From contig ONEB01000011.1 of the NCBI GenBank assembly GCA_900316745.1, forward strand, positions 6,105-70,104: a stretch of DNA of 64,000 nucleotides. Reading direction: 5' to 3'. The translations under genes and the position numbers were made by a program. This DNA comes from an uncultured Eubacteriales bacterium. GTDB lineage: Bacteria; Bacillota; Clostridia; Oscillospirales; Oscillospiraceae. Of this stretch, positions 1,109 to 37,720 are shown one piece after another. The notes under the pieces were generated by a model. That model worked only from the letters and a program-made list of their open reading frames with translations. It searched no databases and was not told where the DNA came from. The first letter of the stretch is position 1. Every line of letters begins with the position of its first letter.

Positions 1109-1109
1109 A

Positions 1110-1973: not shown

Positions 1974-1984
1974 GATGGTATCTC

Positions 1985-3526: not shown

Positions 3527-3615
3527 ACGACCAGCTCCTTCCTGTCAAGTTTGGTTTTGTTAAACACACATTATATTCATGAAATCCAAAAAGTCTATCT
3601 TTATTTTTGTAAAAC

Positions 3616-3774
3616 TCAGTGAAGAATGATAATGTCCGCACCGGTCAGGCGACGATAGTATTTCTTTGCGCGGCAATACTCTTTTTCCGTGATAACCTTG
3701 GTATCCCGCAGATACTTGAGCGCCGCCACAATACGAATAAAATTCGCGCTTTTCTTCTGGGTTTCCGTAAGCAT
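3616..3774 (-). CDS. Small conserved-looking protein (52 aa), translationally coupled to the helicase
   Basis: Below the track cutoff. Manual translation: MLTETQKKSANFIRIVAALKYLRDTKVITEKEYCRAKKYYRRLTGADIIILH. The ATG sits 1 nt after the helicase TGA (TGATATG). Confidence 0.5.
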   Translation of the reverse strand: MLTETQKKSANFIRIVAALKYLRDTKVITEKEYCRAKKYYRRLTGADIIILH

Positions 3775-3775
3775 A

Positions 3776-5713
3776 TCATTCCCTCCGATCATGAAAATAC
3801 GAGTCCGGTTTTACAGAGCGCATAAACGCCCGAAGCTCCTTGATGGAATACACCTGCGGGTACTGCGCCAGTGCCTGCTTCACTCGTTTTTCATGGCGGC
3901 TCATGGTCGCACGGGTATCCAGAATAGCAATCACGCCGGTATCCGTCTCGCTGCGGATCAGACGCCCCGCGCCCTGGCGGAGCTTGATCAGCATCTCCGG
4001 AACTGCGTAATCGTTCACGAAATCGCGCACCGAATCATAGCGGCTGCGCTTCAGTTCCATGACGGCTGACCTCTGTGGAAACGGAAGCCGGACAATGATC
4101 AGTGATGAAAGGCAATCCCCTACACAATCCACGCCCTCCCACATGCTTCCGGAAGCAAAGAGAACACCGTTCCGGCTGCGGCGAAAGGTATCAATCGCAG
4201 TGCGATTGCTTCTCGTCATGCAAATCACGTCGTAGTCCCGCAGACGCTCTGCGGTCAACTCGTGCACCCGCTGGAGCGCGCGGTAAGATGTAAAAAGAAT
4301 TGCCGTATGTCCGCAGGTCGCCCGAACCAGCCGCACGATACGCTTTGAAACCTCACGAAAGTAAGATTCACTGTTATCCGGCCACGGGAGTCCTTTTGCA
4401 AGATAGAGTCGGGCCTGGTGTTGATAGTCAAACGGAGACGGAAACATGCGTTCCTCGATGCGATCCGGAAGCAGTCTGTTCAATCCATGCTCCTGCTTAT
4501 AAAAGCGGAAGTCCCTGCCATCGCTCAGCGTGCCGGACAGGAGAACATGGTGCTTTCGGTATGTCCAAACGCATGTCTCAAACTCCGCGTTCAGATTCTT
4601 TGGACAGCCGCAGAGGGTAAGACTGTCATTTTCATCCATCTCGACCCATGTTGTGATAAAGCTCTTCTGGCGCAGCACCTCGAGCGAAGTCGTAATACGG
4701 CCGATATCCATGCTGTACCCGCCGAAGCCGGAGCGCATTCGTTCCAGTCTTTCAAGCGTATCAATCAGCGTATGGATCACGTCCAGACAGCCTGCGTTCA
4801 AATCTACGATGCTGTGTCCATCCGAAGTCACTTCCTCTTCGTGGTACCGCGTCCGAAGCCAGGAAAAGAGCATATCATTGAGCTCCATTGCTTCGCTCTG
4901 CTCCATCTTATAAAAGGTCTGCTTTGTCCGGTCTCTGCACAGCGTCTTGCTCCAATTCAGATAATTGGGTATATCCTTTTCAGAGATGCTGGCGCCGAAT
5001 GCGCTTTGTGCGGCCTCTTTCAGCTTGTGCGCTTCATCCACGACGATGAGACTGCTCGGGCGGAGCAGCTTCGGATTGGTTCGGGACATCAGGTAAAGAT
5101 TATGATTTGTCACCTGAAATGAAAGTGGTCGGTTGACGTCCTGTGCATACCGCAGGAAATGCACATATTTACAGTTTGCGCACAGAGGGCAATGTCGGCA
5201 TCCGCCATGAACATTGATCGCGTCTTTCACATGACCCGGCAGATCCAGTTCATCCAGATCAAAAGCACCTGACACCCGATCTGACAGTCGGCTTGCGGCA
5301 GAAGGCTGGATACTGCCAAGATAATCCTGATAACGCTGCAGGCAGAAGTAATGCTCTTTCCCTTTCCGTAGTACCGTTGTCAATGGCTGGTGAATCATTC
5401 TTGCGCACAGCAGAATTCGAGAGAGCTGCGGGATTTCGCGCTCTACCAGAGCGGTCTGCAGCTCAATGCTTGACGTCGTAATAGTTATTGGTGCAGGATC
5501 CGTTTTATTCCCTTCCAGAGCTGCAACTCCCGCGACCAAATACGCAAGGGTCTTCCCTGTTCCAACCTCAGATTCCAATAAAGAAACCTGCTTGTTGCAG
5601 AATCCATGGTAGACCGCCAGGCTCAACTGAATCTGATCCTCCCGCACAACATATCCGTGCTTCGGGAGGATCACTCTGAAAATCCGGTCGATGATTGATT
5701 CGCCGTGATTCAA
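3776..5713 (-). CDS. DinG/XPD(Rad3)-family DEAH helicase with a putative 4Fe-4S cysteine cluster
   Basis: Walker A SEVGTGKT, DEAH box VVDEAHKL, Cys cluster HYFC...GGCRHCPLCANCKY, C-terminal helicase motifs (SGSMWEGVD, QGAGRLIR). Likely TTG start at 5713, 7 nt after AGGAGG; the track ORF is extended to 5761. Confidence 0.85.
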   Translation of the reverse strand: MNHGESIIDRIFRVILPKHGYVVREDQIQLSLAVYHGFCNKQVSLLESEVGTGKTLAYLVAGVAALEGNKTDPAPITITTSSIELQTALVEREIPQLSRILLCARMIHQPLTTVLRKGKEHYFCLQRYQDYLGSIQPSAASRLSDRVSGAFDLDELDLPGHVKDAINVHGGCRHCPLCANCKYVHFLRYAQDVNRPLSFQVTNHNLYLMSRTNPKLLRPSSLIVVDEAHKLKEAAQSAFGASISEKDIPNYLNWSKTLCRDRTKQTFYKMEQSEAMELNDMLFSWLRTRYHEEEVTSDGHSIVDLNAGCLDVIHTLIDTLERLERMRSGFGGYSMDIGRITTSLEVLRQKSFITTWVEMDENDSLTLCGCPKNLNAEFETCVWTYRKHHVLLSGTLSDGRDFRFYKQEHGLNRLLPDRIEERMFPSPFDYQHQARLYLAKGLPWPDNSESYFREVSKRIVRLVRATCGHTAILFTSYRALQRVHELTAERLRDYDVICMTRSNRTAIDTFRRSRNGVLFASGSMWEGVDCVGDCLSSLIIVRLPFPQRSAVMELKRSRYDSVRDFVNDYAVPEMLIKLRQGAGRLIRSETDTGVIAILDTRATMSRHEKRVKQALAQYPQVYSIKELRAFMRSVKPDSYFHDRRE

Positions 5714-6192
5714 ATAATCTCCTCCTATGTTGGCGACAGAATGGTATGCAGAAGGACGCAAGCGCCCTTCTGCACAATCGTTCCATCGCCAAAATAAATT
5801 TGGTAATGTTCTTGATGATTCGTCGCATTTTTCTCAGCCCCCGACGATATGGGGAGATTCAGAGCTCCTTTCAGCGCGCAAGGATCATATATGGCATTGA
5901 GGACGTTCGTTCCAGCCCAAAACGACCATATCCCGCCTTCCAGCGGGCTGTGTACTGCACAGAAGTATCATTATTTCCGCTCCCGGTCATTGCCTGCAGC
6001 GCAGTGCTGTTCCTGCGCTGTCCGTGGCAGATGTTTTTCGCTCACTCAGAATTGAGATCCTGGCGCATATGCTCGGCGGCTTTCCTCTCGGCAGAAGCGG
6101 TAACGTACTCTGAATCCCGATATCGACTTTTCAAGGTTCAGCGAAGACGTGCAAAGCATGTCCCTTCACTAAACGCCGATTTCGATTCGGTT

Positions 6193-6687
6193 TTAGCCCC
6201 TGTTTTTCGCTTTCTTAAAAAATTTTTTGATTCTTTTTTCCGCAGCCAGCAGAGATTTTGAGATTCTGCTTTGCCCGACAGACTCCAGATCCGCAATTTT
6301 TTGCTCTGTGAGACCACTCACATGGTACAGCCAGAGTCTGCGGAACTGCTTCTCTGTTACCACGCCTCGGATTTGCAGCACGGTTTCGGCTGCATACTGT
6401 TTCTGCTTTCGCCGCTTGTCTCGTCGGATTGCCGCTGCTTCCGGCGACGGAGTCTCGGTGGCTTGCTCGATCAACAAAGTTTGTGAAACCATATGATTGC
6501 TGTAAATATGGTCTGCTTTTTCTTCCGTGTGGTAGCTTTCGTCCGACCACTCCTTCCATTTCATGAATTCCTCTTCCGTGTCGAAATCTTCACGGGTCAG
6601 TCGGACAATCTGATAATTTGCGTCGATATATACGATAGCATCTCTGTCCTTCTTATTCAGGGCATAGCTGGATTTAGGATTCAGCAA
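6193..6687 (-). CDS. Sigma-70 region-4-like HTH protein (ICE regulatory protein)
   Basis: C-terminal TEKQFRRLWLYHVSGLTEQKIADLESVGQSRISKSLLAAEKRIKKF resembles a sigma region 4 HTH. TTG start preceded by GGAGG. Confidence 0.6.
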   Translation of the reverse strand: MLNPKSSYALNKKDRDAIVYIDANYQIVRLTREDFDTEEEFMKWKEWSDESYHTEEKADHIYSNHMVSQTLLIEQATETPSPEAAAIRRDKRRKQKQYAAETVLQIRGVVTEKQFRRLWLYHVSGLTEQKIADLESVGQSRISKSLLAAEKRIKKFFKKAKNRG

Positions 6688-6695
6688 AATATGTA

Positions 6696-6730
6696 CCTCC
6701 GATCAAATTTTTTTGAAATTTGATCGGAGG
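6696..6730 (-). promoter_or_regulatory. Perfect 15-bp inverted repeat (5-nt spacer) that includes the SD of the sigma-like gene
   Basis: cctccgatcaaattt-ttttg-aaatttgatcggagg. In the mRNA sense the 3' arm carries GGAGG, 9 nt before the TTG start, and the 5' arm carries the anti-SD CCUCC. Confidence 0.6.
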
Positions 6731-6907
6731 CGGCGGGCTTCGGCAGCGCAGGCAAAACTCGCCGGATTTCATCGGCAAAATGCTGAATTTTATAAAAATC
6801 TTGTGAGAAACAAATAATTCGAGAAAAACGACAAAAAATAATCGACCGCTTTCCGCAAATCCACCTACCGTTCGATAGGAGAAGCTGTGGAAAGCGGTCG
6901 AAATAAA

Positions 6908-6958
6908 TTGGAGCGCAGACAATCTATGGATCGTCTGCGCTCCAATTTGTGGTTTTTG
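6908..6958. terminator. Strong stem-loop with flanking A and T tracts (probable bidirectional intrinsic terminator)
   Basis: ttggagcgcagac-(12 nt)-gtctgcgctccaa followed by tttgtggtttttgtg. An A-rich run lies upstream. Confidence 0.6.
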
Positions 6959-7069
6959 TGTTCTTCGTCTGGTGACGGGAGGATCACTTCCACCCACACC
7001 AGACAAGAGCAATCTGATATTCAATCATCGCATCCCCTTTTGGCGGGTGCGAATGATTGTATCAGACAA

Positions 7070-7107
7070 TTCCTCTCTTTTTCCTCTCTTTCTCCTCTCT
7101 TTTCCCT
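7070..7107 (+). repeat. 38-nt pure polypyrimidine (CT) tract
   Basis: ttcctctctttttcctctctttctcctctcttttccct, in the noncoding junction between cargo and ICE backbone. Confidence 0.8.
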
Positions 7108-7261
7108 ACAAATATCGCAACTTCAGACAAGACTCGACTTTGCCGAATTCAAAGTATTTCATCTTAAAGATTTACCTCTGCTGCATATGTTTTCATTGAA
7201 TCAAAGGCACAAGCCAGCCCTCCGGTCAGCTTATAGGCGCTTTCGATCTGTTCCCGTCTGG

Positions 7262-7918
7262 TCATGCGCTTTCTCCTTCATTCGTATTGGCTCTTTTCTT
7301 ATATCCGCAGTCGCAGTAGGGACCGCCGGATGCCAGCGTATACTCCCGCACAAATACCGATGCTCCGCCAGCCTCGCTCATGGTATAGTCCAGGCGGCAC
7401 ATGGCCGGAACGAGATCAAAGAGCCCCAGCTCCCGCATCAGCGTGCAGATGCCGCATTTTAAAAACCGTGCTTCATAGCCGCTGCCGTCCGGGTAAGGCA
7501 GATAGTCCATATTCCAGGAATAGGGGTTTCGGTCTGCGGCTCTCAAAGCGGCGGTTTCACGCATTCCCTGAATGTCCTTTTCGCTGAATTTCCGCTTCCC
7601 GCTCATCCGGCAAAACCACTTCATAGGAGCTGTCATCATGGATTCCTTATAATACTCCGTCGTCTTTTCAACCGTCGGCCTTTCCGGCAGATTCAGAAGA
7701 AAAGCGGACAGCATCGCACAATTGACAATATTCATCTGAAAGCGGTCCGCCTTCTCGAATTCCGGGAGACTCCGGATGATCTCCTTATATCTCGGTTTTG
7801 CTTTGTTGGTGATTGCCTTCGCCGTTTCAGGATCATAGCCGTAAACCGAAGATAAATGCTTCCGGAAGGATCTTGCAAACAGCGCCCACATGCCAAGCGG
7901 CATCCCCACGTATTTCAT
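7262..7918 (-). CDS. L-2-amino-thiazoline-4-carboxylic acid hydrolase-like protein (family assignment from memory)
   Basis: 218 aa with a Cys-containing C-terminus (FLKCGICTLMRELG...PAMCRLDY...GGPYCDCGYKK), typical of that family as I recall it. Confidence 0.5.
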   Translation of the reverse strand: MKYVGMPLGMWALFARSFRKHLSSVYGYDPETAKAITNKAKPRYKEIIRSLPEFEKADRFQMNIVNCAMLSAFLLNLPERPTVEKTTEYYKESMMTAPMKWFCRMSGKRKFSEKDIQGMRETAALRAADRNPYSWNMDYLPYPDGSGYEARFLKCGICTLMRELGLFDLVPAMCRLDYTMSEAGGASVFVREYTLASGGPYCDCGYKKRANTNEGESA

Positions 7919-7967
7919 ATTACTGGTCTCCTATGATTCCAAGCTTCATTTGTTCATTGCTCCTTCT

Positions 7968-8741
7968 TCATCGATCTGCGGGCATCTCCATGAATTCGTC
8001 AATCGCCTTCAGCACCGGCACGGTATATTGCTCTCCACCGAAGAGCCACTGTTCGTGCTGCATATCAAATTCCCGGATGTCCGGATCCCGGAAATATTTT
8101 TTATAGCGCTTCAGATACTTTTCGCCCATCTTGTTCGCGTAGATGAAGTGCACCTTCGTATTCTCCACATGGATATCGTCCTTCAGCCAGGTGAGCAGGT
8201 CGGTGTAATACTCGTTTTTGATGGACTCCGGATTGAATTTGGCAAAACAGCCCATGAAGCGGTCCGCCGTCTCATCGTTCATCTCAAAGAAGCCTTTGAG
8301 TTTTTCTCTGGTCTTTGCCATCTTTTTCTCGCTTTTGGTAAAGCTGGTCAGCAGCGGGACCACCAACTTGGACTGCAGCCAGGCGCTGATCTTTCCGCTC
8401 TGGTCCAGATCCGGGCTGCCGAAGATCCCGTGATCGATATGTACCTGTTCCCGCTGGATCAGCTGACCTACAAAGCTGCTGCCCAGAGATGAGCCGAGCG
8501 CCCCGTCCATGCGGCCGCCGAATTTTTCTTTGATGTACATCTCTATCTTCTCCGTGACCGTGATCATGTCGGGGAAAATGGTATCGCTTCCGTCAAAGCC
8601 ATCGTAATTGACGCAGATCAGGTGGTATTTCTTTCCCAGTCGATCCAGTACAGATCCAAAGTTCGTCTGATAATCGCAGGCCGTCCCCGGGAGCAGCATT
8701 AGGGTTTTTCCCGCCGGATTACCCATCTCAACAAATTGCAT
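7968..8741 (-). CDS. Alpha/beta hydrolase
   Basis: Nucleophile elbow GSSLG; N-terminal LMLLPG oxyanion-type segment; 257 aa. Confidence 0.75.
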   Translation of the reverse strand: MQFVEMGNPAGKTLMLLPGTACDYQTNFGSVLDRLGKKYHLICVNYDGFDGSDTIFPDMITVTEKIEMYIKEKFGGRMDGALGSSLGSSFVGQLIQREQVHIDHGIFGSPDLDQSGKISAWLQSKLVVPLLTSFTKSEKKMAKTREKLKGFFEMNDETADRFMGCFAKFNPESIKNEYYTDLLTWLKDDIHVENTKVHFIYANKMGEKYLKRYKKYFRDPDIREFDMQHEQWLFGGEQYTVPVLKAIDEFMEMPADR

Positions 8742-8754
8742 CGTTACACCCTCC

Positions 8755-9249
8755 TTATTTCAGGACCAAGGCCATGAGCCCGGAGAGAACAGCAGCGATG
8801 ACCGCCATGCCCACCGTCCCCATAATCCACTTCTGTTTTTTGTCCTTTGCCGTGATATACGGCCTTAAATCCTCCGTTCCCGGGATGATCCAATCCTTGG
8901 TATGCCCGACCCAATAATCGTCGATCAAAAAGCGGTCGATCAGATTCATAATGGACAGGATTACAAGCCCCTGCCAGAAGCCAGGCCAAAATCCCTGCGC
9001 ACCGTTAACGGCGTACACGCAGAGAAGCACGTAGATCAGATACCCCGGCAGACACAGGCCTTTGAAACGCACGCTTCGCTTCCGAATCTCGTCTCTGGTC
9101 GTCAGGCCAAGTGCGATGACGCGCTCCTGCACCTTTTGATCGTACAGATGGACCATTCCAACGGCGCCGTTCCGAATGCCGATCGCACAGATAAGATACA
9201 GCAGAAAGCCCAGAACGAGACCTTCCGCGATGAGTTTTACCACAAGCAT
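8755..9249 (-). CDS. Multi-pass membrane protein, paralogue family A (copy 1)
   Basis: 164 aa with several hydrophobic segments. Shares the motif LIDRFLIDDYW with AFDMIFIDWFLL of the 10577-11074 protein. Confidence 0.6.
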   Translation of the reverse strand: MLVVKLIAEGLVLGFLLYLICAIGIRNGAVGMVHLYDQKVQERVIALGLTTRDEIRKRSVRFKGLCLPGYLIYVLLCVYAVNGAQGFWPGFWQGLVILSIMNLIDRFLIDDYWVGHTKDWIIPGTEDLRPYITAKDKKQKWIMGTVGMAVIAAVLSGLMALVLK

Positions 9250-9321
9250 TTGTCATCCTCCGGATCTTTTAGGACCGTTTATAATGCCTTCTGATATCAA
9301 TTCACAAGCGGCTCAGATTTC

Positions 9322-10575
9322 TTACGTATCAAATTCCGGGAGACCGTGTGACATCGCAGATTCCAATCCTGCCGCAAGACGTTCCGGCTGGAGCGGCGCG
9401 AGTCCGCCGTGACCGACGTTCTCGAGCGCGCGAAAAGCCGCCTGCGGAAAGTGCTTCTTCACATAGGCGATGTCCCACGCTCTTTCCTTCGCTTCCGCCT
9501 GCGCATACCAGTATTCGATGTGCTCGCAGGCGATCTCCATTGGCTCCGGCATAGGATAGTTGTTGCAGGAGTCAAACGTGCGCCAGATCGTTTTTCGGCT
9601 CAGAGAATGGAGCACGTCGGCGATATACTGCAGATCCTCTGCGGAATACTCGTCCGTGGCGAACGCCTTTTCCAACAGCTTAATCCCGCCGAGCTTTCCC
9701 ATGGCGATCATCAGGTAATCCCTCAGGGCGATGAAGCGCGTCGCGATCCACGGCAGCTGATACGGCGTGATGCCGCCGTCGATGACGGCGCTGCGTGTCT
9801 TCACCCTTCCGTCCGCAAGAAAGCGAATCACAATGGAGCCGCCCATGGAGCAGCCGTAGATGCAGTCGATCTCCGGGTGTCCGTTCGCAAGCAGCCAGTC
9901 CGCAAGCTCGTCAGCGATCTCCTCGATGCTCGTAAATTCCGACTGCCGATCCGGGTCATAGCCCGGCAGAGCCGGAATAACCAGATGATAGTTCTGCTCC
10001 ATCAGCGGGATCACATATTCAAAGTAATCCCACCGCACCAGCGACGGGTGGATCAGCACCACAGTGCGCGGATTGCCTTTCCCGAATTCGTGGATCGTCA
10101 TGGTCTCCCCTTCTGGCCTCTGCCTTTTATATCCGCGATATAACAATCCTGCAAACACAAAGCAGAGCAGACTGCCGAGACTCATGGTGAGCAGCTCCCC
10201 GCAGGCGCCGAGCTTCATGCCGTGTGAAATGCTGACAATGATTGCAGCAGCGGACAGAATCATTCCGGTCAGACCGCCCAGCGTCAGCGCCCCGAATCCC
10301 AAATGCAGCTGCCATTTCGGCAGGATGCGATCCTGCTTCCGGATTCGCTCATGGATCAGATGGATCAGTTCTCCGATCCCTGTGAGCATCAGCAGCGCAG
10401 GAAGGACCGCGCAGACGGAAAGAACCAGCACAGCCGGAATCTCCAAAAACGCTGGCCGATTCACGAAGATGCGGATCAGGCCGACCAGATACGCGATCCA
10501 GCCGAGATTGCCCGGCACGTCATAGGCGTACCATCTGGCGTCGGAGATATTGGTCTTGTATATTTCCTGCTTCAT
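9322..10575 (-). CDS. Membrane-anchored alpha/beta hydrolase (N-terminal multi-TM domain plus hydrolase domain)
   Basis: About 150 aa of hydrophobic N-terminus, then VVLIHPS...PALPGY...GCSMGG nucleophile elbow. Confidence 0.75.
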   Translation of the reverse strand: MKQEIYKTNISDARWYAYDVPGNLGWIAYLVGLIRIFVNRPAFLEIPAVLVLSVCAVLPALLMLTGIGELIHLIHERIRKQDRILPKWQLHLGFGALTLGGLTGMILSAAAIIVSISHGMKLGACGELLTMSLGSLLCFVFAGLLYRGYKRQRPEGETMTIHEFGKGNPRTVVLIHPSLVRWDYFEYVIPLMEQNYHLVIPALPGYDPDRQSEFTSIEEIADELADWLLANGHPEIDCIYGCSMGGSIVIRFLADGRVKTRSAVIDGGITPYQLPWIATRFIALRDYLMIAMGKLGGIKLLEKAFATDEYSAEDLQYIADVLHSLSRKTIWRTFDSCNNYPMPEPMEIACEHIEYWYAQAEAKERAWDIAYVKKHFPQAAFRALENVGHGGLAPLQPERLAAGLESAMSHGLPEFDT

Positions 10576-10576
10576 A

Positions 10577-11074
10577 TTAAAACAGCGTGCAGATCCACGC
10601 AGCGAGTGCAGACGCCACAGGGAAAATGACCAGCAGCTTCAGCAGCTGACTTTTGAGATTGAAGCCGTACTTTCTGCCGTTGAACACCGGCGCTACCTCG
10701 GGGTAGAAATACTGGAAGAAATGGAACTTGCAAAGGAGAAACCAGTCGATGAAAATCATGTCAAACGCTTTGTAGATCGTAAAGATCACAACAAAGCGCA
10801 GGAAGAACTGCACGAAGGAATAGCCGTTTCTGAAACCGTCCCAGATCGAGACCACACCTACAAACAAGATGACCACGATGCTAAGAATCATCATCGCCCA
10901 GCCGATCGTTCTGGCGCCGTAAAACAGCTCCTTCTCTCTCGGCTTCAAAACCTCCCGTGCCTCCTTCGGTGCTGACGAGAACAGCCGCGTATCCTGCACG
11001 AAGGCGACCCCTGAGATCATCATGAGCGATACCGCCGCACAAAACACGATTGCCAGAAATAACGTTAAGAGCAT
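10577..11074 (-). CDS. Multi-pass membrane protein, paralogue family A (copy 2)
   Basis: 165 aa. Its C-terminus FIDWFLLCKFHFFQYFYPEVAPVFNGRKYGFNLK... is homologous to the truncated remnant at 14793-14978. Confidence 0.6.
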   Translation of the reverse strand: MLLTLFLAIVFCAAVSLMMISGVAFVQDTRLFSSAPKEAREVLKPREKELFYGARTIGWAMMILSIVVILFVGVVSIWDGFRNGYSFVQFFLRFVVIFTIYKAFDMIFIDWFLLCKFHFFQYFYPEVAPVFNGRKYGFNLKSQLLKLLVIFPVASALAAWICTLF

Positions 11075-11094
11075 AATGGTTTCCTCTCAATCAA

Positions 11095-11718
11095 TTACTT
11101 CTTTGCCAGTACCGCAAGCCACGGCTTTGACGGGTGGTGGTATGCGGTGACGGCTGTGAATCCGGCGGATTTCAGCGCGGCCTCGAGCTGCTCGGCGGTA
11201 TGGCACTTCATGCCCTCGATGATCTGCTCAAATTTCAGGCTCGCGGCGTCCGTGCCGTCGGACTCGTTGCAGATGAGAAACGCGCCGCCCGGTTTCAGAA
11301 CGCGCGCGACCTCGGCAAAGCATTTCTCCAGCCCCGGCCAGAAATAGACCGTCTCAAACGCCGTGGCGAGATCATACGCCCCGCTCTCCAGAGTAAGCTC
11401 TGAGACGTCGCCCTGCAGCACCTCGCAGCGCCCCTCCGCAATTGCTTCGGCGTTATACGCTGTCGCCTTCTCGACGGACAGAGCGGAATAATCCACAGCG
11501 GTTACACGCGCGTTCGGGTATCGCTTGAGTAATTCAGCCGCGTTTCTCCCACCGCCGCAGCCCAGCTCCGCAACGCGCTGAGGTTCAATGCCTTTTAAGC
11601 ACGCCATGCCCCAATCCGCGAGCTTGGCATGACCGCCGTTCATGCCGCTGATCATGAGCTTTCCGAGAAAGCCCTCCGGCTTTCTGGTCTGATTGAAATA
11701 CTTTTTGAGCAAGCCCAT
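11095..11718 (-). CDS. Class I SAM-dependent methyltransferase
   Basis: Motif I VAELGCGGGRN; acidic loop TAVDYS; LKPGGAFLI post-I motif. Confidence 0.85.
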   Translation of the reverse strand: MGLLKKYFNQTRKPEGFLGKLMISGMNGGHAKLADWGMACLKGIEPQRVAELGCGGGRNAAELLKRYPNARVTAVDYSALSVEKATAYNAEAIAEGRCEVLQGDVSELTLESGAYDLATAFETVYFWPGLEKCFAEVARVLKPGGAFLICNESDGTDAASLKFEQIIEGMKCHTAEQLEAALKSAGFTAVTAYHHPSKPWLAVLAKK

Positions 11719-12566
11719 TATGCACCCTCCTTTTCAAAATCCATCCGAATGATCTGCATGTTCATAAAGCTGTCCGCGATCTTCGCGAGAACCCGGAAAG
11801 TTCCCGGTACGGACGGGTCGCGCAGATCGTTGTAGCCAAGCATATAGCCGCGGGCGGTGACTTTGGCGTTCGTCATCCAAGGAAGGATATCCGCCTCGAG
11901 GCTGTCGACCTTGAAGTAGTCGGAGATGCTGGTGACGCCCGCATCCTTCACCCAGGTCTTCAGCATGATCTTCACCGCGCGCTTGTTCGCCGCATCGAAG
12001 CAGAGCCTGCCGCCCGGAAAGCGCTTCGCCATGGCGGGCAGGAGCTTTCGCATGTCCTCGGTTTTGAAATAGTAAAACACGCCCGCCGCGAGGAAGAACA
12101 CGCCGTTCGAGGCGTCGATCTGATCAAACCACGAAAGATCGTTGAGATCGGCGGCGAGGTTTTTCACGCGGTCGGTCTCCGGCAGCAGCTCGTTTCTGAC
12201 GGCGATGACATCCGGCAGATCGATGTTGTAGATACGGCACTGACCGTTGTCGCAGTTCTCCGCCGTCTGGTCAAGACCGCAGCCGAGATTCACCAAAGCT
12301 GCCTTGGGATGCTCGGCGAGATACGCCCTTGCCTCAATCATCAGATCGCTCTCGCGCATGGCGACCTCCAGCGCGCCGAAGCGGTAGCCCATGCCGGAGG
12401 CCTTCGCCTCCAGCGGCGAGAAGTCATAGTCAATGCGCTCAATCAGCTCGACCGCCTTCGGGTCCTGAAACAGATTTGGGAACTGCTCTGTGCACAGCTT
12501 GCGGCCGAAGAGCGGGATGACCAGCGTCTCCTGCACGGTGTTTTTCTCAATGTGCGTTTTTTCCAT
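11718..12566 (-). CDS. O-methyltransferase of the leucine-carboxyl / TcmP-like class I family
   Basis: LVNLGCGLDQT...IYNIDLPDVI...FFLAAGVFYYF pattern. TAATG overlap with the downstream gene. Confidence 0.65.
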   Translation of the reverse strand: MEKTHIEKNTVQETLVIPLFGRKLCTEQFPNLFQDPKAVELIERIDYDFSPLEAKASGMGYRFGALEVAMRESDLMIEARAYLAEHPKAALVNLGCGLDQTAENCDNGQCRIYNIDLPDVIAVRNELLPETDRVKNLAADLNDLSWFDQIDASNGVFFLAAGVFYYFKTEDMRKLLPAMAKRFPGGRLCFDAANKRAVKIMLKTWVKDAGVTSISDYFKVDSLEADILPWMTNAKVTARGYMLGYNDLRDPSVPGTFRVLAKIADSFMNMQIIRMDFEKEGA

Positions 12567-12577
12567 GTTGCATCACC

Positions 12578-13366
12578 TTATTTCTTTCCAACGAGCAGCG
12601 CCGATCCGGCGAGCTCCATCCAAAGGGCTTCAAAGGGCGTGATTGGATTGCCGTTCGTGGTAGAGATCAGCTGCACCTCCTGATAGCCCAGATCGCGGAG
12701 CTTCTGCACGAAGGCCTGCATGTCTCCGTATTTGGATTTTGAGAAAATGTCATGCAGCGCAAACGTACCGCCCTTTTTCAGCACACGCAGCGTCTCAAGC
12801 AGGATCGCCTGCCGGTCACGGCTCGGAATGTTGTGGTAGACATAGTTGCTCACGACGGCGTCAAAGCGCTCGTCTGCAAAATCGAGATGAAAGGCATCGC
12901 CCTTTGCGAAGGAGACGTTCTGCACGCCCTCCGCCTCGGCGTTTTGCTCGCAGAGCGTTTTGCTGAAGGAGGCGTATTCCTTGCCCCAGCGGTCCACGCC
13001 GAGGAAACGCGCGCCGGGATTGTGTCTGGCGCAGGCGATGGTGAGCGCGCCGCTGCCGCAGCCGATATCGAGCGCCTCACTGCCCTCCGGCAGAGACACA
13101 TGCGAGGCAATCTCCTCTATGATGCGGCGGGAGAGCTGGCGCTTGCCGTCATAGGAGAACGTGCGGTACATGAGCGTCATCCAGATTGTCGACACCGCGC
13201 CCACCGCAAATCCGGCAAGACCGGTGGCAAGCAGCGCGGTGCGCCAGCCGGCGGAGACCAGCCCGGTCAGGCGAACGACCAGATACAGCGCGAGAAACGC
13301 GCCTGTCCCGCCCGCTCCGGCATAGATCATGCCCTTCGGCATCCAGTTTTTATAGTTTGGTTTCAT
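12578..13366 (-). CDS. Membrane-anchored class I SAM methyltransferase (two N-terminal TM segments)
   Basis: Hydrophobic N-terminus, then ALDIGCGSGALT...FLGVDRW...VSNYVYHNI...LKKGGTFAL. Confidence 0.8.
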   Translation of the reverse strand: MKPNYKNWMPKGMIYAGAGGTGAFLALYLVVRLTGLVSAGWRTALLATGLAGFAVGAVSTIWMTLMYRTFSYDGKRQLSRRIIEEIASHVSLPEGSEALDIGCGSGALTIACARHNPGARFLGVDRWGKEYASFSKTLCEQNAEAEGVQNVSFAKGDAFHLDFADERFDAVVSNYVYHNIPSRDRQAILLETLRVLKKGGTFALHDIFSKSKYGDMQAFVQKLRDLGYQEVQLISTTNGNPITPFEALWMELAGSALLVGKK

Positions 13367-13369
13367 TCT

Positions 13370-13864
13370 TCAAACTCCTTTTGGGAACCATGGGATACAA
13401 CGATTTACTTGTTTGCAATAGCTTTCATAGTCCGCGCCGTACAGATCCCGCAGCCATCGCTCCTCAGTGTGTTTCATCAGTACCGTCAAAAACAGCCAAT
13501 ACAGCGGCGGAAGCAGGAACAGCCATGCGTTGCCGACGATCAGCAGAACACCGGTGCAGACGATCAGAATGGCGGAGTAGATCGGGTTTCTGACCCAGGC
13601 GTAAATGCCGGAAGTGACAAGTCGGTTTTCCTTGATTCCGTCATCAATCTTGGAAACGAAAACAGACTGAACCCAAATGAAAATGCCGAGCGCGATCAGA
13701 GCGATTCCCAGCACCAATAACGGAATCCGGAACGTGGTCAGCTTCCCGCCGGAAAGCGCCGGAAGTCTCCCGACAAAGACGCCCGCGATTGTCAGAACCG
13801 CAACCACGCCGCCATAGATCGGGCCGACGCCATAAAGCGGCAGATGGTCGTTTTTCGTTTTCAT
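13370..13864 (-). CDS. Isoprenylcysteine carboxyl methyltransferase (ICMT/PEMT)-family integral membrane methyltransferase
   Basis: GIYAWVRNPIYSAILIV...HTEERWLRDLYGADYESYCKQV matches the ICMT-family C-terminal signature. Confidence 0.75.
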   Translation of the reverse strand: MKTKNDHLPLYGVGPIYGGVVAVLTIAGVFVGRLPALSGGKLTTFRIPLLVLGIALIALGIFIWVQSVFVSKIDDGIKENRLVTSGIYAWVRNPIYSAILIVCTGVLLIVGNAWLFLLPPLYWLFLTVLMKHTEERWLRDLYGADYESYCKQVNRCIPWFPKGV

Positions 13865-13870
13865 TCTCCG

Positions 13871-14779
13871 TCAGCCTTCTTCCCGGATCAGCCGGATCAT
13901 CAAGTCCCAGCCCTCTTTTGCTTCCCTGCAGATTGGAAACACGGGATAGCAGTGGAACATGCCCTCGCCCACGATCATTTCATAGTCGACGCCATAACGC
14001 CGCATGGCCTCCTCAAATGACGGTGCGATGGAATAAAGCACCTCGTCGGTACCATAGATAAACGTGACCTTCGGGCAGCCGGTGAAATCTCCAGTCTGGA
14101 GAAAGATCATATAATCCGGCACGGTCTCATCGCCGTGACGCATGATCTCCTCCGCCGTCTGCATATACTTTGCGGAAATCACCACGTCTTTCTCATCCAG
14201 CGCCAGCATACGCCGCGTCTCCTCCTCCGTTTTCGCACAGGTGCCGGGGGAAATTGCAAGAATGTAGCCGGGCTTCGGCAAGTCCATCTGATTCGCATTC
14301 AGATATGCAACCAGGCCAAGCGCAAGATTACCGCCGGAGGATGTCCCGAGCAGGGAGATGTTTTCGGACTTATATTCCGCAAGCATCGCTCTGTATGTTT
14401 CGCAGATCATCTCATACGCTCGTGTCACAGGACCTTCTGTGCACAGCGGATAATACGGGATGAAGACGTCCACACCGGTTTCCTTTGCAAAGCGGAGCGC
14501 CTTTTTGATTGAGCCCGGTCTGGGCGCGCTTACCATGCCTCCGCCAATGATGAAGAGATTTGCCTTCTCCGCCCTTCCCGGATGCTTCATGCGGAGAACC
14601 GGACAACCCATAATCTCCACCCTGCTGATCTCCAGATCAGGATCGTGCAGCTCCGGGATCACGTTCTTCTCGTTTTCCTTTCGCTTTACGGCAAGAATCT
14701 CGGACGCGCTCATTTCGCCGCGCTTTTTCATACCGGACAGCTTGACGAGCCGCTTCAGAACTTCGTATTTCATACTCAT
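13871..14779 (-). CDS. Alpha/beta hydrolase fold-3 type esterase/lipase
   Basis: FIIGGGMV oxyanion-type motif and GTSSGG nucleophile elbow. ATG at 14779 lies 9 nt after GAGGAG; the track ORF is extended to 14818. Confidence 0.75.
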   Translation of the reverse strand: MSMKYEVLKRLVKLSGMKKRGEMSASEILAVKRKENEKNVIPELHDPDLEISRVEIMGCPVLRMKHPGRAEKANLFIIGGGMVSAPRPGSIKKALRFAKETGVDVFIPYYPLCTEGPVTRAYEMICETYRAMLAEYKSENISLLGTSSGGNLALGLVAYLNANQMDLPKPGYILAISPGTCAKTEEETRRMLALDEKDVVISAKYMQTAEEIMRHGDETVPDYMIFLQTGDFTGCPKVTFIYGTDEVLYSIAPSFEEAMRRYGVDYEMIVGEGMFHCYPVFPICREAKEGWDLMIRLIREEG

Positions 14780-14792
14780 GATTATATACTCC

Positions 14793-14978
14793 TCAAAACA
14801 ACATACAGATTCCGACAAGCGCCGCGGATACGACTGGGCACAGCAGAATCATGCCAAAATGAGACTTCCAATTGAAGCCAAACTTGTGAAAGCCCTCGCC
14901 GCCCTCCGTCTCCGGATAGAAATGCTGGTAAAAATACGAATTCGTCAACAGAAAGATCAGAATCCACGTGACGTTATT
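14793..14978 (-). pseudogene. 3' remnant (about 58 codons) of a third family-A membrane protein gene
   Basis: Manual translation WILIFLLTNSYFYQHFYPETEGGEGFHKFGFNWKSHFGMILLCPVVSAALVGICMLF* aligns with the C-terminus of the 10577-11074 protein. An in-frame TAA at 14979-14981 cuts it off, with no start codon; upstream DNA turns AT-rich. Confidence 0.65.
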
Positions 14979-15115
14979 TTACTGTGACACTTGGCTTTCT
15001 ATCTTAGCAAGCGAGAGTTAGACATGGCTAATTCATTATATCTCACATTTCTCGTCGGTTCAAGTTTTTTTGATTCGCAGAGCAGAAATTAGAAATATCT
15101 CTGCGACAGGAACCA

Positions 15116-15811
15116 TTAAGATTCCGGAAGAAAACGGTAGCCCACACCTCGAACTGTTTCAATGTATTTTGGCCGTTCCTTATCATCATCCAGCTTCTTG
15201 CGCAAATATGTAATCACGGGCGTAATATCCCGAGCTTCATCAGCTTCATCAAGCCATACTGCCTCGCGGATCTGATCTTGAGTCAAAACAATTCCTGGGT
15301 TTCTCGCGAAGTATGCCAGTAAGCGGAACTCACGGGGCCGAAGATAGATTTGTGTATTTTCCTTCATCACACGATGACGTTTTGAATCAATGATCAGATC
15401 GCCTCGATATAGCGTAGAGGCTTCAGGATCAAACGCATCATAGCGATCGTAGATAATATATCTGCGCAGCAATGCCATCGCCTGCGAAAAAATGATTCGG
15501 AGATTTGTCGTGGATGGAACACACACATCCGCCCCAACCTCAAGCGTTGACGCAATCATCTCCAACTTTGTCAACACGAGCACTGGAGCGTATGTTATCG
15601 TTCTTATTCTACTGACAAAGCTCTGTGTCTTGTCTGATGATTCATCAAAAACATTCAAGATGATCATACAATAATCATGTCTGTCCAAATGAATCATTGC
15701 TTCATGAAAACTGCTGCATGTCATCAGAGTATATTGATCCATCTCAAAATACCGATTGAAAATCTTAACCATTTCATCCGGTAGGCCAATCGTTAAAATC
15801 TGTTTTCCCAT
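15116..15811 (-). CDS. OmpR/PhoB-family winged-helix regulator with a degenerate receiver domain (orphan atypical response regulator)
   Basis: C-terminal PREFRLLAYFARNPG...ITYLRKKL...VRGVGYRF. The receiver has IILNVF where the canonical regulator in this window has ILLDVM (Asp to Asn), and GADVCVPST instead of GADDYLAKP (Lys missing). Confidence 0.8.
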   Translation of the reverse strand: MGKQILTIGLPDEMVKIFNRYFEMDQYTLMTCSSFHEAMIHLDRHDYCMIILNVFDESSDKTQSFVSRIRTITYAPVLVLTKLEMIASTLEVGADVCVPSTTNLRIIFSQAMALLRRYIIYDRYDAFDPEASTLYRGDLIIDSKRHRVMKENTQIYLRPREFRLLAYFARNPGIVLTQDQIREAVWLDEADEARDITPVITYLRKKLDDDKERPKYIETVRGVGYRFLPES

Positions 15812-15873
15812 ATTTCCTCTATAGACAATATATTTATCATTTTATAGTGTCTTCTCTCTATCTCGCAGAATCA

Positions 15874-15939
15874 TACGAAACAAAATAACGGAACTGTCCT
15901 ATCAACACAGAATCGCGTGTTCGAAAGAACAGTCCCGTT
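15874..15939 (-). terminator. Probable intrinsic terminator of the haem/ABC operon
   Basis: In mRNA sense: AACGGGACTGTTC...(27 nt)...GGACAGTTCCGTT followed by ATTTTGTTTCG. It begins 17 nt after the TAA at 15956. Confidence 0.5.
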
Positions 15940-15955
15940 TTTCGAAATTGTCTGT

Positions 15956-18900
15956 TTACGACTGTCTGGCGCGGGACATCTCGAATACGGTGTCCGCGAT
16001 GTTCATGGTGCTCTCCCGGTGCGAGACGAGAACGACGGTCTTCTCCCCTGCGCTCTCGCTCAGAGATTGGAGGATCACGCCCTCGTTGAGGGCGTCAAGG
16101 TTGCTGGTCGGCTCATCGAGCAGCATCAGCGGCGCGTCGTGCAGGAAGGCGCGAGCCACGCCGATGCGCTGTTTCTCGCCGCCGGAGAGCGTGTCGCCCA
16201 GCTCCCCGACCGGAGTGTCGTAGCCCTGCGGGAGCGACCGGATGAAGTCATGCACAGCAGCCTTCTTTGCCGCTTCCACGATCTCTTCCCGTGTGGCGTC
16301 GAGCTTGCCGATGGCGATGTTGTTCGCGATCGTGTCCTTGAAGAGCACCGTTTCCTGTGTGACGTAGGATTCCAAATTACGCAGGCAGGCGGTGTTGATC
16401 CGGCGCACATCCGTGCCGGAGAGCGCGACCCTGCCGCCTGTGACGTCCCAGAAGCGCATGAGGAGCTTCAGAAGCGTGGACTTGCCGGAGCCGCTTGGGC
16501 CGTGGATGCCGAGGATCTTTCCCTCCTGGAAGTCGAGCGAGAGGTCGTGCAGGATCTCTTCCCCGCCGTAGGAGAAGGAGACCTGCTCCGCCGCGGCGCC
16601 GGCGAAGGCGACGACCTCGCCGCCGGAGACCTCCTCCACCTCGGGCTCCTCCTCCAAAAGGCGCAGCACGCGCTCGCCGGATGCGAGCGTCTGGTTGAGG
16701 TTATTCGAGAGGCTGCTCAGCGCCACGACCGGGCCGAAGGAACCCATCATCGCGACCGTGACCAGCAGCGCCGTGTGGAAGTCCGCCGCGCCGCTGCGAT
16801 ACGCCGCGAGCATGAAAAACAGCATTCCGATGGAAAACAGCTCAATGAGCAGGTTCGTGACCGCGCGCTGGCTCTGCTCAAAGCGGTTGAGCTCCTTTTG
16901 CTCCTTGCCCATGGCGCGGGAGCGGCGCGTGATCTCGCCCATGCGTTTGGCGCCGTGCCCGTACTGGATGGTCTCGTCCAGACCGCGCAGGGACTCCAGC
17001 ATGAAGCTGTTCATCTCGCCGAAGCACTCCCGGAAGGACATGCCTGCAACGGCGCTGCGGCGTCCGTTCCAGAGCGGGACGATGAGGCCGACCGCAAGAT
17101 AGCCGCAGAGGGCAATCAGCGCGGCGCCGAGGGAACGTGTGCCGATGAAGATCAGCATGATGACCGATACAATCACGGCAATGGCAATGGGAGAAATCGT
17201 GTGCGCGTAGAACACCTCCAGCAGCTCGATGTCCGCCGTGAGAATGGAGATGAGGTCGCCGCGATCCCTGCCCTCCAGCTTTGCCGGGCAGAGCCTGCGC
17301 AGCACGGCAAAGACCTTATGCCGGATGATGGCAAGGAGCTTGAAGGCAATGAAGTGGTTGCAGTACTGCTCGCCGTAATGCAGCAGACCGCGGGCAACGG
17401 CGACGACGATCAGGATCGTGGTGAGCGTTTTGGTGGTCCGCTCGGTCATAACGAGCACAACGCCGTGGCTCGCGAGGATCGTGAGCGAAATGGCACAGAG
17501 ATAACCGACCACGCCGAGGAAGATGGCAAGGAGCATGACAGGCAGCAGTGGTTTCACCAACCCGATAAGTCTGCCCATGATGGCGGCACCGGAGCGGCGC
17601 ACGCCGGGCGTTTTTTCCTTTGCCGCCGTCTTGGCGGTCTGAACCTGCGCGGGCTCTGCCGTCTCTGCCTCCACGCGCTCGGCGTTCTTGGCGGCGTAGG
17701 CCTCGAGCTTCCGCTGCGTTTGGAATAGATCGGCGTATGAGCCGTTTTTCGCGAGCAGCGCCGCGTGGTCTCCCTGCTCGGTGATGGCTCCATCTTCGAG
17801 GAAATAAATCCGGTCGGACGGCACGACGTTCGCGAGGCGGTGGGAGATGAGCAGCACGGTGCGCTCCCTGGCGAGCTTGTGAATGACCTGCATGATGAGC
17901 TCTTCGCTCTCCACATCGATGTTGGACGTGGCCTCGTCGAAGATGTACACCGGCGTGTCGTGCAGCAGCGCGCGGGCGAGCGCCAGACGCTGGCACTGGC
18001 CGCCGGAGAGGTTGCTGCCGCGCTCGGCGATCTCGGTATCCAGTCCGTCCTGCGCCTCGACGAAGCGGCGGAGATTCACCTGCTCCAATGCCGCAAGCAG
18101 CGCAGCGTCGTCCGCATCGGGATTGCCCAGAAGCAGATTGTCCCGCACGGTGCCCTTGAAGATCGTGCTGCTGTGGGTGACGAGGGTGATGTGCCGCATG
18201 AGGCTCTCCTCGTTCAAATCCCGCAGCTCTCTCCCCTGCACGGTGATGCTGCCGGTGTAGCCCTTGTTGCGGCCCATGAGAATGCCCGCGATGGTGCTCT
18301 TGCCGCAGCCGGAGAGGCCGACGAGGGAGGTAAAGCTCCCGGCCGGGAGATCGAGGCTCACGCCGCGCAGCACCGGGTGCTCCTCGGTGTAGGCAAAGCC
18401 GACGTTTTCCAGATGAATGCTGATCGGATCGTCCGTGAGGACCTCCGTCTTCTGCTCCGGCTCCGGGGTATCGAGGAAGGAGAAGATGCGGTCGCTCGCG
18501 GACATGCCGTTCATGGCGATGTGGAAGAACGAGCCGAGAATGCGCAGCGGGATGAAAAACTCGCTGGCCAGCAGAATCGTCATCAGCGCTGCGGTCAGGG
18601 TGATCTTCCCCTGCGCGAACTGCGCGATCGTGACCGCCATGCCGATGGCAGCGCCGCCGTAGGCCATGATGTCCATGACGGAGGTGGAGTTGAGCTGCAT
18701 GGTGAGGACCTTCATCGTCACCTTGCGGAAGGTCTCGGACTCGGCGTCCATGTCCTCGGCCTTTTTCTCGTCCGCCCGGTAGATCTTCAGCGTGGTCATG
18801 CCCTGCAGATTCTCCAGGAAGCTGCTGCCGAGGGAGTGGTAAATATCCAGATACTTGTTGATGAAGCGCTTTGCGATCTTCTGCACAGCCACGATGGACG

Positions 18901-20210: not shown

Positions 20211-20211
20211 C

Positions 20212-22048: not shown

Positions 22049-22063
22049 CCGAAGCTCCCTCCT

Positions 22064-25510: not shown

Positions 25511-25545
25511 GATTTCTTCCTCACTTCTATTTCTTATTTCTAAAT

Positions 25546-33009: not shown

Positions 33010-33155
33010 AGTTCTTCTTCCTTTCTATTGTAAAATTTGTATGTGTATCTAAAACCGCCGAAGCGGGTGTTTCTTCGTCTCGTCAGAATGGGCTTGCTCC
33101 ATTCCGCAGCGCCGCAAGCGGCGCGGCTCCATATCAGCGCCCCCATTCTTCCTCT

Positions 33156-37708: not shown

Positions 37709-37720
37709 TGATCTTCCCTC

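Follow-up and report, generated by a model that had tools for sequence, protein, structure and literature searches.

A ten-gene fragment of a recurrent, shuffled array of methyltransferase, hydrolase, and membrane-protein genes carried as cargo of an integrative conjugative element in an uncultured Eubacteriales bacterium

A 64,000-nucleotide stretch of contig ONEB01000011.1 (hereafter the window), from an uncultured Eubacteriales bacterium (assembly GCA_900316745.1), contains an operon-like block of ten co-directional genes, g1 to g10, on the minus strand at 7262-14779. The block encodes four S-adenosylmethionine (SAM) methyltransferases, three alpha/beta hydrolases, one ATC_hydrolase-like protein, and two paralogous membrane proteins of ~165 amino acids. 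We find that it is a fragment cut from a longer array, that it is the cargo of an integrative conjugative element (ICE), and that the families it encodes recur together, in shuffled order and variable number, in many other genomes. The array is widespread, ecologically focused on the ruminant gut, and uncharacterized, and at least two of its membrane-protein families lack any model. We tentatively favor the reading that it represents a modular, horizontally exchanged set of cytoplasm-facing enzymes that modify lipophilic foreign small molecules. The array is best filed as an accessory small-molecule-modification island on a mobile element with an unusual combinatorial organization, and a new mechanism is not demonstrated.

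Array loci were surveyed with g5 as the anchor, using one genome per species, and the open reading frames (ORFs) of the 80 loci were searched with the ten window proteins. By their labels, these loci come overwhelmingly from ruminant-gut metagenome-assembled genomes and Hungate-type isolates, mostly of Clostridia (Butyrivibrio, Lachnospiraceae, Oscillospiraceae, and Christensenellales), and genes with 60-79% identity are also present in bins of Treponema, Bacteroidales, Anaerolineaceae/Chloroflexi, and Solobacterium (Erysipelotrichaceae). Fifty of the loci span at least 12 kb; of these, 47 hold one or more of the other nine families beside g5, 32 hold three or more, and 25 hold five or more. 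All ten families are present in one Butyrivibrio locus (L067). The family matches are densest within 2 kb of g5. Of the 438 family genes, 410 point in the same direction as g5, and 126 of 296 junctions measure less than 30 bp. A search anchored instead on TMx, the N-terminal membrane domain of g4, recovered the same kind of array, including one of at least 14 genes (L103). The first-pass annotation of this DNA had suspected an association of methyltransferases, hydrolases, and membrane proteins and had suggested a search for its conservation; the association is real and recurs in at least 80 species, as a mobile array fragment rather than as the self-contained system that had been envisaged.

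The combination of families is conserved and their order is not. Adjacency between families is near random in both orders (g4 followed by g5 eight times, g5 followed by g4 eight times), copy number varies (L004 holds seven ATC_hydrolase genes and five methyltransferases), and synteny is kept only in part and only within a genus, as in the Butyrivibrio sub-blocks g8-g6, g9/TMx-g4-g5, and g10-g2. Pairwise comparison of g1, g2, g3, g5, and g10 with their orthologues gave dN/dS values of 0.04-0.13 (0.04-0.08 for g2), indicating strong purifying selection, with synonymous sites saturated in these pairs (dS at least 0.9, most above 1). The arrays resemble integron cassette arrays in that small, mostly single-function co-directional genes vary freely in order and content between relatives. 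Integron-like cassettes were nevertheless rejected, as the junctions are plain stop, ribosome-binding site, and start elements of -1 to 72 bp and neither attC-like repeats nor an integrase were found beside the arrays checked; the Treponema locus (L037) likewise contains no repeat family or integrase-like arrangement. The simplest guess is that shuffling occurs by recombination between arrays that share genes. Taken together, independent assortment, variable paralogue number, strong selection, and cross-phylum mobility argue against a fixed pathway or a stoichiometric writer/eraser pair, and argue for largely self-sufficient units that stay together because they are regulated and transferred jointly and work on one broad class of molecules at a shared location in the cell.

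Several further families accompany the arrays. Heterodimeric ABC exporters of the multidrug-resistance type are present in 30 of the 80 loci (53 ORFs in 1.1 Mb), lie no more than 1.5 kb from an array gene in 22 of these, and are nearly always on the same strand. Other recurrent members are DUF6796 proteins (29 loci), ApbA-like reductases (15), P-type ATPases (13), BAAT_C-type hydrolases (11), TetR regulators (10), metallo-beta-lactamase-fold hydrolases (9), ZIP transporters (9), and additional ATC_hydrolase and methyltransferase subfamilies. No transporter or regulator had been noted within the block itself; in a wider view, exporters and TetR regulators are frequent beside arrays elsewhere, and an exporter and a regulator-like gene also lie upstream of the block here. 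Two local patterns were observed in addition. In one array (L004/L005/L006, positions 1500-7100), seven ATC_hydrolase-family genes are nearly consecutive and are accompanied by two DUF6796 genes, a strong amplification of a single family. The genes for g7 and g1-type ATC_hydrolases tend to travel together, often adjacent or overlapping (L001, L003, L051, L055, L060, L062, and L064; odds ratio 23, Fisher p 0.001, uncorrected and not phylogenetically independent), and may form a two-gene sub-module.

The region surrounding the block is an ICE and the block is its cargo, because serine recombinases on one side and a type IV coupling protein and MobL relaxase on the other flank it (Table 1) and because the same cargo is found in a variant of the element. 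This second variant (L088) is 99.9% identical to positions 568-14788 of the window, which span the recombinases and the block, and carries a different upstream segment; the two diverge exactly upstream of the ribosome-binding site of g10. An identical block is also present in L087, on metagenome contigs whose labels point to cattle rumen. The divergence at 14788 and the gene remnants on either side show that the block is one piece of a longer array, and that the upstream regulator-like gene, ABC exporter, and haem segment are a separate acquisition. The remnant upstream of g10 aligns with residues ~113-163 of full-length g5 relatives. The one overlapping the stop codon of g1 corresponds to residues 1-28 of methyltransferases of ~226 amino acids encoded in arrays L051, L055, L062, and L040 (E 6e-8 to 2e-6), and marks the 3' end of the array fragment. 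GC content is mosaic: the block has 0.55, against 0.43 in the regulator-like gene, 0.63 in the ABC exporter, and 0.59 in the cargo further upstream. Mobility genes are also found near other arrays, as L103 adjoins a relaxase gene and a TnpV gene is located a few kb away from L106. No match was obtained when plasmid records were searched with the DNA of the block and with the g5 and g1 proteins.

The ten genes are transcribed in the order g10-g9-g8-g7-g6-g5-g4-g3-g2-g1, and the gaps between them (-1 to 72 bp) hold only stop codons, ribosome-binding sites, and start codons. With a promoter candidate near 15040, between the stop codon of the regulator-like gene (15116) and the g5-like remnant, with junctions of this kind, and with a hairpin at 6901-6943, the block is probably transcribed as one operon. 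A further hairpin is located at 6695-6731, and an Rfam scan revealed no riboswitch or leader in or ahead of the block. For g10, an ATG codon at 14779 behind a GAGGAG ribosome-binding site was favored over a TTG at 14818 and is most likely the start. Much of the first-pass description of the block was borne out. All ten minus-strand ORFs with their short gaps or overlaps were recovered; Pfam matches support the four SAM methyltransferases (two class I enzymes, one LCM/TcmP-like, and one ICMT-family); hydropathy places the two N-terminal transmembrane (TM) helices of one class I enzyme in g8; and the three alpha/beta hydrolases with elbows GSSLG, GCSMG, and GTSSG are present, g4 being fused to a domain of about four hydrophobic helices. 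The ATC-hydrolase-like protein is g1, and of the proposed two intact and one truncated copies of a ~165-amino acid membrane protein, the truncated copy is a real remnant and the intact copies, g3 and g5, are joined by profile comparison and not by BLAST. The proposed gene limits stand for the ten genes, with the start of g10 moved from 14818 to 14779 and a second remnant, at 7164-7265, added.

Each enzyme was compared with Pfam and NCBIfam models, and the checks that the first-pass annotation had suggested returned correct families with no equivalog-level assignment to a characterized pathway, as no block gene reaches any NCBIfam equivalog cut-off. g9 belongs to the PEMT/ICMT superfamily, and its RxPxY and EE...Y SAM motifs (R92-N93-P94-Y96 and E134-E135...Y142/Y146) are kept in at least 90% of 18 relatives; against the isoprenylcysteine O-methyltransferase equivalog NF040696 it scores 50.6 bits (cut-off 160). 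g7 is a member of the LCM/TcmP family and falls below the cut-off of TIGR00027 (40.3 versus 93.55 bits). The best NCBIfam match of g6 is BioC (TIGR02072), at 49.4 bits versus a cut-off of 185, and g8 scores 52.2 bits against the same model. The SAM motifs of g6, g8, and g9 are conserved in their relatives, and two of the four methyltransferases are membrane-embedded or membrane-anchored. g10 is a member of Abhydrolase_3 without a TM segment by hydropathy, with G92-G94, S160, E259, and H289 conserved among 21 relatives; its NCBIfam hormone-sensitive-lipase (HSL) subfamily score of 77 bits does not reach the cut-offs of 380-430. S243 and H389 of g4 are conserved in 26 relatives. A GSSLG elbow, a weak BLAST similarity to g4 (E 0.01), and 25 related ORFs that match both g2 and g4 together identify g2 as an alpha/beta hydrolase, and the nucleophilic Ser is conserved among its relatives.

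g1 matches the whole of the ATC_hydrolase model, whose type member is AtcB, the L-2-amino-thiazoline-4-carboxylate (ATC) hydrolase of Pseudomonas, and C155, C174, D177, R191, C202, and D203 are conserved among 37 relatives. In contrast to AtcB, g1 has no AtcA/AtcC partner beside it, arrays hold several paralogues, and neither of the partner families of the ATC-to-cysteine route (racemase and N-carbamoyl-L-cysteine amidohydrolase) was found in the block or among the recurrent neighbors; the name serves as a family label only. At 90% identity, the clusters of g1 and g2 contain 650 and 642 members. PDB sequence searches with g1, g2, and g7 gave nothing meaningful. An anti-phage defense system was considered and rejected, as PADLOC matched only the generic methyltransferase domains of g6 and g8, to "mad2", and none of the other eight proteins. 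No signal peptide was found in any block product, and hydropathy and positive-inside counts place all catalytic domains on the cytoplasmic side. These domains are therefore predicted to lie at or near the cytoplasmic face of the membrane, in agreement with the membrane-proximal placement proposed earlier.

The small membrane proteins g3 and g5 do not match each other in BLAST. Comparison of their family profiles with hhalign gave a full-length alignment (probability 98.1%, E 7e-14, 12% identity), and a single ORF in L021 matches both, so that the two are deep paralogues. D105 and D110 of g5, in the third helix (TM3), are invariant and common to both families, as are several basic loop residues. 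The superfamily is narrow, comprising 608 clusters at 50% identity among 1.84 billion representatives, and many of its own representatives are fragments. None of the homologues carries a Pfam domain or an informative name, and a profile search of PDB sequences gave nothing meaningful. The AlphaFold2 model of g5 is of moderate confidence (pLDDT 68.5) and had no Foldseek match in the PDB at E below 2. In four proteins (P0490, P0513, P0583, and P0233), a piece of a g3- or g5-like protein is joined with half of an alpha/beta hydrolase, with an ABC ATPase, with a permease, or with a CtsR-like helix-turn-helix; they were rejected as informative fusions, since they look like remnants of in-frame rearrangement junctions or assembly chimeras.

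TMx comprises residues 5-152 of g4, contains the motifs YDxPGNxGW, ELIxERI, and RGFGALTLGG, and shows no relationship to g3 and g5 by hhalign (probability below 1%). Its usual form is a stand-alone protein of 130-155 amino acids (140 clusters). The AlphaFold2 model is confident (pLDDT 92.9) and shows four bundled helices plus a small sheet, and its PDB matches are restricted to generic four-helix bundles and tetraspan auxiliary subunits (best E 0.14, TM-score about 0.5). These values are insufficient to assign a function from the fold, and such an assignment was rejected; because only generic bundles and auxiliary subunits resemble it, the modeled fold would fit a scaffold rather than an enzyme. 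In four Butyrivibrio/Pseudobutyrivibrio species, an ICMT-like protein (residues 9-165) and TMx (residues 169-298) form a single 299-amino acid fusion. A g4-type hydrolase gene lies downstream of the fusion, directly so in L063 and L082, with a 4-bp overlap of the two genes in L082. In the lineage of the window, TMx is instead fused to the g4 hydrolase. Since TMx is fused alternately to either enzyme, this Rosetta-stone evidence suggests cooperation among the ICMT-like enzyme, TMx, and the g4 hydrolase.

We tentatively interpret the array as a set of enzymes that handle lipophilic compounds, because the chemistry of the encoded families, their predicted membrane-proximal cytoplasmic location, the same-strand ABC exporters, and the TetR regulators fit such a role. 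The anatomy of the block, the recurrence and shuffling of its families, their selection and mobility, and the fusion link are demonstrated here; we infer the substrate class, the order of the reactions, and the role of the membrane proteins. In this scheme, the fragment would have been captured as ICE cargo from a larger recurrent array exchanged horizontally among ruminant-gut anaerobes, and each gene or small sub-block would be able to act by itself on lipophilic small molecules that reach the membrane or the cytoplasm, for instance plant secondary metabolites, fatty acids, and feed additives. Hydrolases would open esters, thioesters, or lactones, methyltransferases would cap exposed or pre-existing carboxyl, thiol, hydroxyl, or phosphate groups, and adjacent ABC exporters, in many relatives, would then remove the products. 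The small membrane proteins may anchor the enzymes or present substrate to them; in the fusions, TMx is physically coupled to an ICMT-like methyltransferase or to the g4 hydrolase. Two published observations are compatible with this interpretation and provide weak hints: an ATC_hydrolase of C. difficile is up 11-fold in a MATE-efflux mutant (PMC13435710), and in F. prausnitzii a STRING cluster of 14 genes, among them one for an ATC hydrolase, has 7 members in a single co-expression module (PMC9674144). An extension of this interpretation, which we regard as doubtful, is that a ruminant-gut-wide combinatorial toolkit of ~15 families, exchanged across phyla, reassorts as single-gene units within tight co-directional operons and without integron machinery and, together with ABC exporters, provides a hydrolysis, methyl-capping, and efflux defense against lipophilic plant or feed compounds. 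These families would comprise several subfamilies of methyltransferases and of hydrolases, paralogues of ATC_hydrolase, DUF6796, and two or more Pfam-less membrane families (the g3/g5 superfamily and TMx), the small membrane proteins serving as dedicated membrane receptors or anchors for the enzymes.

Of known systems, the resistance and detoxification islands of conjugative elements, in which a TetR-regulated enzyme is paired with an ABC exporter, are comparable in being accessory, horizontally transferred arrays, and heterodimeric ABC exporters and TetR regulators often neighbor the arrays described here, some of which lie beside a relaxase or TnpV gene. They differ in that no known resistance gene is present, the arrays are not bounded by insertion sequences or transposons, and they form tight co-directional operons of up to at least 14 genes drawn from ~15 families. 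Searches of the available literature on ATC_hydrolase/PF14196, DUF6796, rumen ICE cargo, and monensin resistance yielded no description of the array, in line with the earlier view that this is not a described system.

A number of points weigh against a role in handling lipophilic compounds. The evidence for xenobiotic handling, namely family-level chemistry and neighboring ABC exporters and TetR regulators, is circumstantial, and no substrate, inducer, or phenotype is known for any array member. The small membrane proteins offer no functional clue, as g5 has no fold match in the PDB and TMx resembles generic bundles only. As a rule, known resistance islands consist of transposons or cassettes and not of tight, translationally coupled operons. 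In the window, the upstream ABC exporter belongs to a different recombination segment from the block (breakpoint 14788). Mobile-element markers were found within 10 kb in only about 4 of the 80 genome loci, so most arrays may be chromosomal, and binning errors could inflate the apparent spread across phyla.

Among the alternatives, the first-pass annotation had put forward a dedicated carboxyl-methylation/demethylation cycle for one hydrophobic substrate, with methyltransferases writing and alpha/beta hydrolases erasing a methyl ester. ICMT and LCM families do methylate carboxyl groups, the eukaryotic erasers ICME and PME-1 are alpha/beta hydrolases, and most arrays hold methyltransferases together with hydrolases. 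The block recalls the reversible carboxyl methylation of eukaryotes by ICMT/Ste14 with ICME and by LCMT-1 with PME-1, as g9 lies in the PEMT/ICMT superfamily, g7 in the LCM family, and g9 adjoins g10 with a gap of 6 bp; plant ICME is of the Abhydrolase_3 type, like g10. It differs in scoring below equivalog cut-offs and in that the pairing of writer and eraser is not conserved across loci; to our knowledge, the substrates of those systems, prenylated proteins and PP2A, are not known in these bacteria. BioC/BioH offers another precedent, a class I O-methyltransferase and an alpha/beta-hydrolase esterase acting on one carboxyl group. BioC is the top NCBIfam match of g6, and one source labels a g2 relative "pimeloyl-ACP methyl ester carboxylesterase", a generic COG label; however, the g6 score is far below the BioC cut-off and no bio genes occur in the block or its window context. 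The TMx fusions to either the ICMT-like protein or the g4 hydrolase are the best support for such coupling, but for this trio alone. Across loci, pairing, order, and stoichiometry of methyltransferases and hydrolases are not fixed and family content is near random. The strongest co-occurrences (g1-g7, g2-g10, and g6-g8) join like with like or have no bearing on the proposed pairing, and none is a methyltransferase-esterase pair. The g9-g10 association is weak (odds ratio 4.4, p 0.09), and g9 and g7 are each missing from many arrays, being found in 17 and 19 of the 80 loci. Moreover, class I methyltransferases such as g6 and g8 are not carboxyl-specific, and a writer and an eraser in one operon would form a futile, SAM-burning cycle. 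A single coupled cycle thus appears unlikely and is not supported by the survey.

The array could instead tailor an endogenous envelope component (a membrane lipid, a lipoprotein, or a lipid-linked intermediate), with paralogue diversity generating surface or membrane variation. The PEMT/ICMT family includes phospholipid and lipid A methyltransferases, a weak match to the LmtA model was obtained (30 bits), and g10 comes from a lipase/esterase family; two methyltransferases and one hydrolase are membrane-bound, in the company of three small membrane-protein families. This explanation is difficult to reconcile with the presence of the same genes, at 60-79% identity, in very different envelopes (Gram-positive Clostridia, spirochaetes, Bacteroidales, and Chloroflexi bins), with the accessory and mobile character of the arrays, and with the predicted cytoplasm-facing catalytic domains. 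As no lipid-synthesis, glycosyltransferase, or flippase gene was seen among the recurrent neighbors either, we consider envelope tailoring improbable.

Methylation-based handling of thiols, sulfide, or metal(loid)s, by volatilization or neutralization and with the Cys-rich ATC_hydrolase-like proteins as metal or sulfur binders, is suggested by the best NCBIfam matches of g8, which are models of the arsenite-methyltransferase type, by a weak match of g9 to the methanethiol S-methyltransferase MddA, and by the three Cys and two Asp residues conserved in g1. ZIP transporters and P-type ATPases recur near arrays (9 and 13 loci), and the human membrane-anchored class I thiol methyltransferases TMT1A/B provide a structural analogue. 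The scores are far below the cut-offs (61 versus 510-575 bits for g8 and 22.7 versus 270 bits for g9), no ars, mer, or other metal-resistance regulator recurs near arrays, and the neighboring P-type ATPase, flavodoxin, and DUF3793 genes may reflect plain lineage synteny. With three to four serine-hydrolase families also left unexplained, this possibility seems quite remote. Finally, a chance accumulation of unrelated accessory genes, without a common function, in the cargo region of an ICE would account for the mosaic GC content and the recombination scars at both ends of the block, but it is already contradicted, and very improbable, given the recurrence of the families in 47 of 50 long loci from different species, their co-directionality and short junctions, their concentration near the anchor gene, and the recovery of the same families with TMx as the anchor.

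The remaining cargo of the element was also annotated. Directly upstream of the block, at 15116-19411, are a response-regulator-like gene and an ABC exporter. The former encodes an OmpR-type protein of 231 amino acids with a Trans_reg_C domain and no receiver domain detected at E<=1e-3, and its GC content is far below that of its neighbors. It was rejected as a dedicated regulator of the array, being found in this one arrangement only and being absent from L088, which has the block. The exporter, which sits between the haem locus and the regulator-like gene, is a fused full-length protein of 1151 amino acids with two ABC_membrane and two ABC_tran domains. Beyond it lies a complete Gram-positive-type haem-acquisition locus as ICE cargo, encoding a YgbA_NO/DUF454 fusion, an ABC ATPase, a FecCD permease, a periplasmic-binding protein, an Shp haem-binding protein, several NEAT proteins, and a surface protein of 1831 amino acids with SLH and three NEAT domains; this locus is absent from the sister element L088. 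GC content drops to 0.43-0.45 over the 5' portion of the SLH/NEAT gene and over the sequence ahead of a YpsA/SLOG-like gene, a further sign of mosaic cargo. The sole Rfam match in the window is a dinG RNA motif directly upstream of the gene for the DinG-like helicase.

Table 1. Features of the block and its surroundings in the window, with the ICMT-like-TMx fusions of other loci
Feature	Position	Strand	Basis or remark
Serine recombinases	1110-3526		
DinG-like helicase	3776-5761		
dinG RNA motif RF03082	5889-5972	-	68 bits
Probable terminator	6901-6943	-	15-bp stem, then U-rich tail; RNAfold -29.1 kcal/mol
5' remnant of class I methyltransferase gene (33-aa ORF)	7164-7265	-	28-residue match; overlaps g1 stop
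g1, ATC_hydrolase-family protein, 218 aa	7262-7918	-	PF14196 81.5 bits (cut-off 28.1), model positions 1-145/145
g2, alpha/beta hydrolase, 257 aa, GSSLG elbow	7968-8741	-	No Pfam family; elbow, similarity to g4
g3, membrane protein, 164 aa, distant g5 paralogue	8755-9249	-	hhalign, family versus family
g4, TMx domain fused to alpha/beta hydrolase	9322-10575	-	Abhydrolase_6
g4, C-terminal alpha/beta-hydrolase domain, GCSMG elbow	9322-10110	-	Abhydrolase_6 41.7 bits
TMx, N-terminal four-helix domain of g4	10111-10575	-	Elsewhere stand-alone or in ICMT-like fusion
g5, four-helix membrane protein, 165 aa	10577-11074	-	No Pfam or NCBIfam match
g6, soluble class I SAM methyltransferase, 207 aa	11095-11718	-	Methyltransf_25/11
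g7, LCM/TcmP-type O-methyltransferase, 282 aa	11718-12566	-	PF04072 39.7 bits (cut-off 22.3)
g8, class I SAM methyltransferase, 262 aa, two N-terminal TM helices	12578-13366	-	Methyltransf_31/11/25, hydropathy
g9, PEMT/ICMT-family integral-membrane methyltransferase, 164 aa	13370-13864	-	PF04191 (PEMT) 54.2 bits (cut-off 25), PF04140 (ICMT) 30.2 bits (cut-off 24)
g10, Abhydrolase_3 (hormone-sensitive-lipase type) esterase, 302 aa, GTSSG elbow	13871-14779	-	PF07859 79.5 bits
3' remnant of g5-like gene, last ~51 aa	14793-14954	-	tblastn with g5: 43% identity, E 2e-7
Promoter candidate, sigma-70-like, TTGAAC-17-TATAAT	15035-15063	-	10/12 consensus matches; match to consensus only
Response-regulator-like gene	15116-15811	-	
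Fused ABC exporter	15956-19411	-	
Haem-acquisition locus	19413-33009	-	
Low-GC stretch	30000-34000		
YpsA/SLOG-like gene	33613-34137		
Type IV coupling protein	34953-36827		
Toprim protein and MobL relaxase	36806-39121		
MobL relaxase	37721-39121		
ICMT-like-TMx fusion	L063:8778-9677		
ICMT-like-TMx fusion	L067:7393-8292		
ICMT-like-TMx fusion	L068:7851-8750		
ICMT-like-TMx fusion	L082:8326-9225		

The array draws attention to genes that are strongly selected, exchanged between phyla in the ruminant gut, and carried by conjugative elements. Their scale is considerable, with ~3000 homologues of g5 and ~3600 of g3, and all members of the array are named generically or as "hypothetical". The link between the ICMT-like enzyme, TMx, and the g4 hydrolase that the fusions suggest offers a concrete starting point for biochemistry. 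If the array does serve as a tolerance toolkit for plant secondary metabolites, free fatty acids, or feed additives, it would be relevant to the response of rumen communities to diet and additives, to the chemical fate of such compounds, methylated products included, and to the cargo that conjugative elements carry beyond antibiotic-resistance genes.

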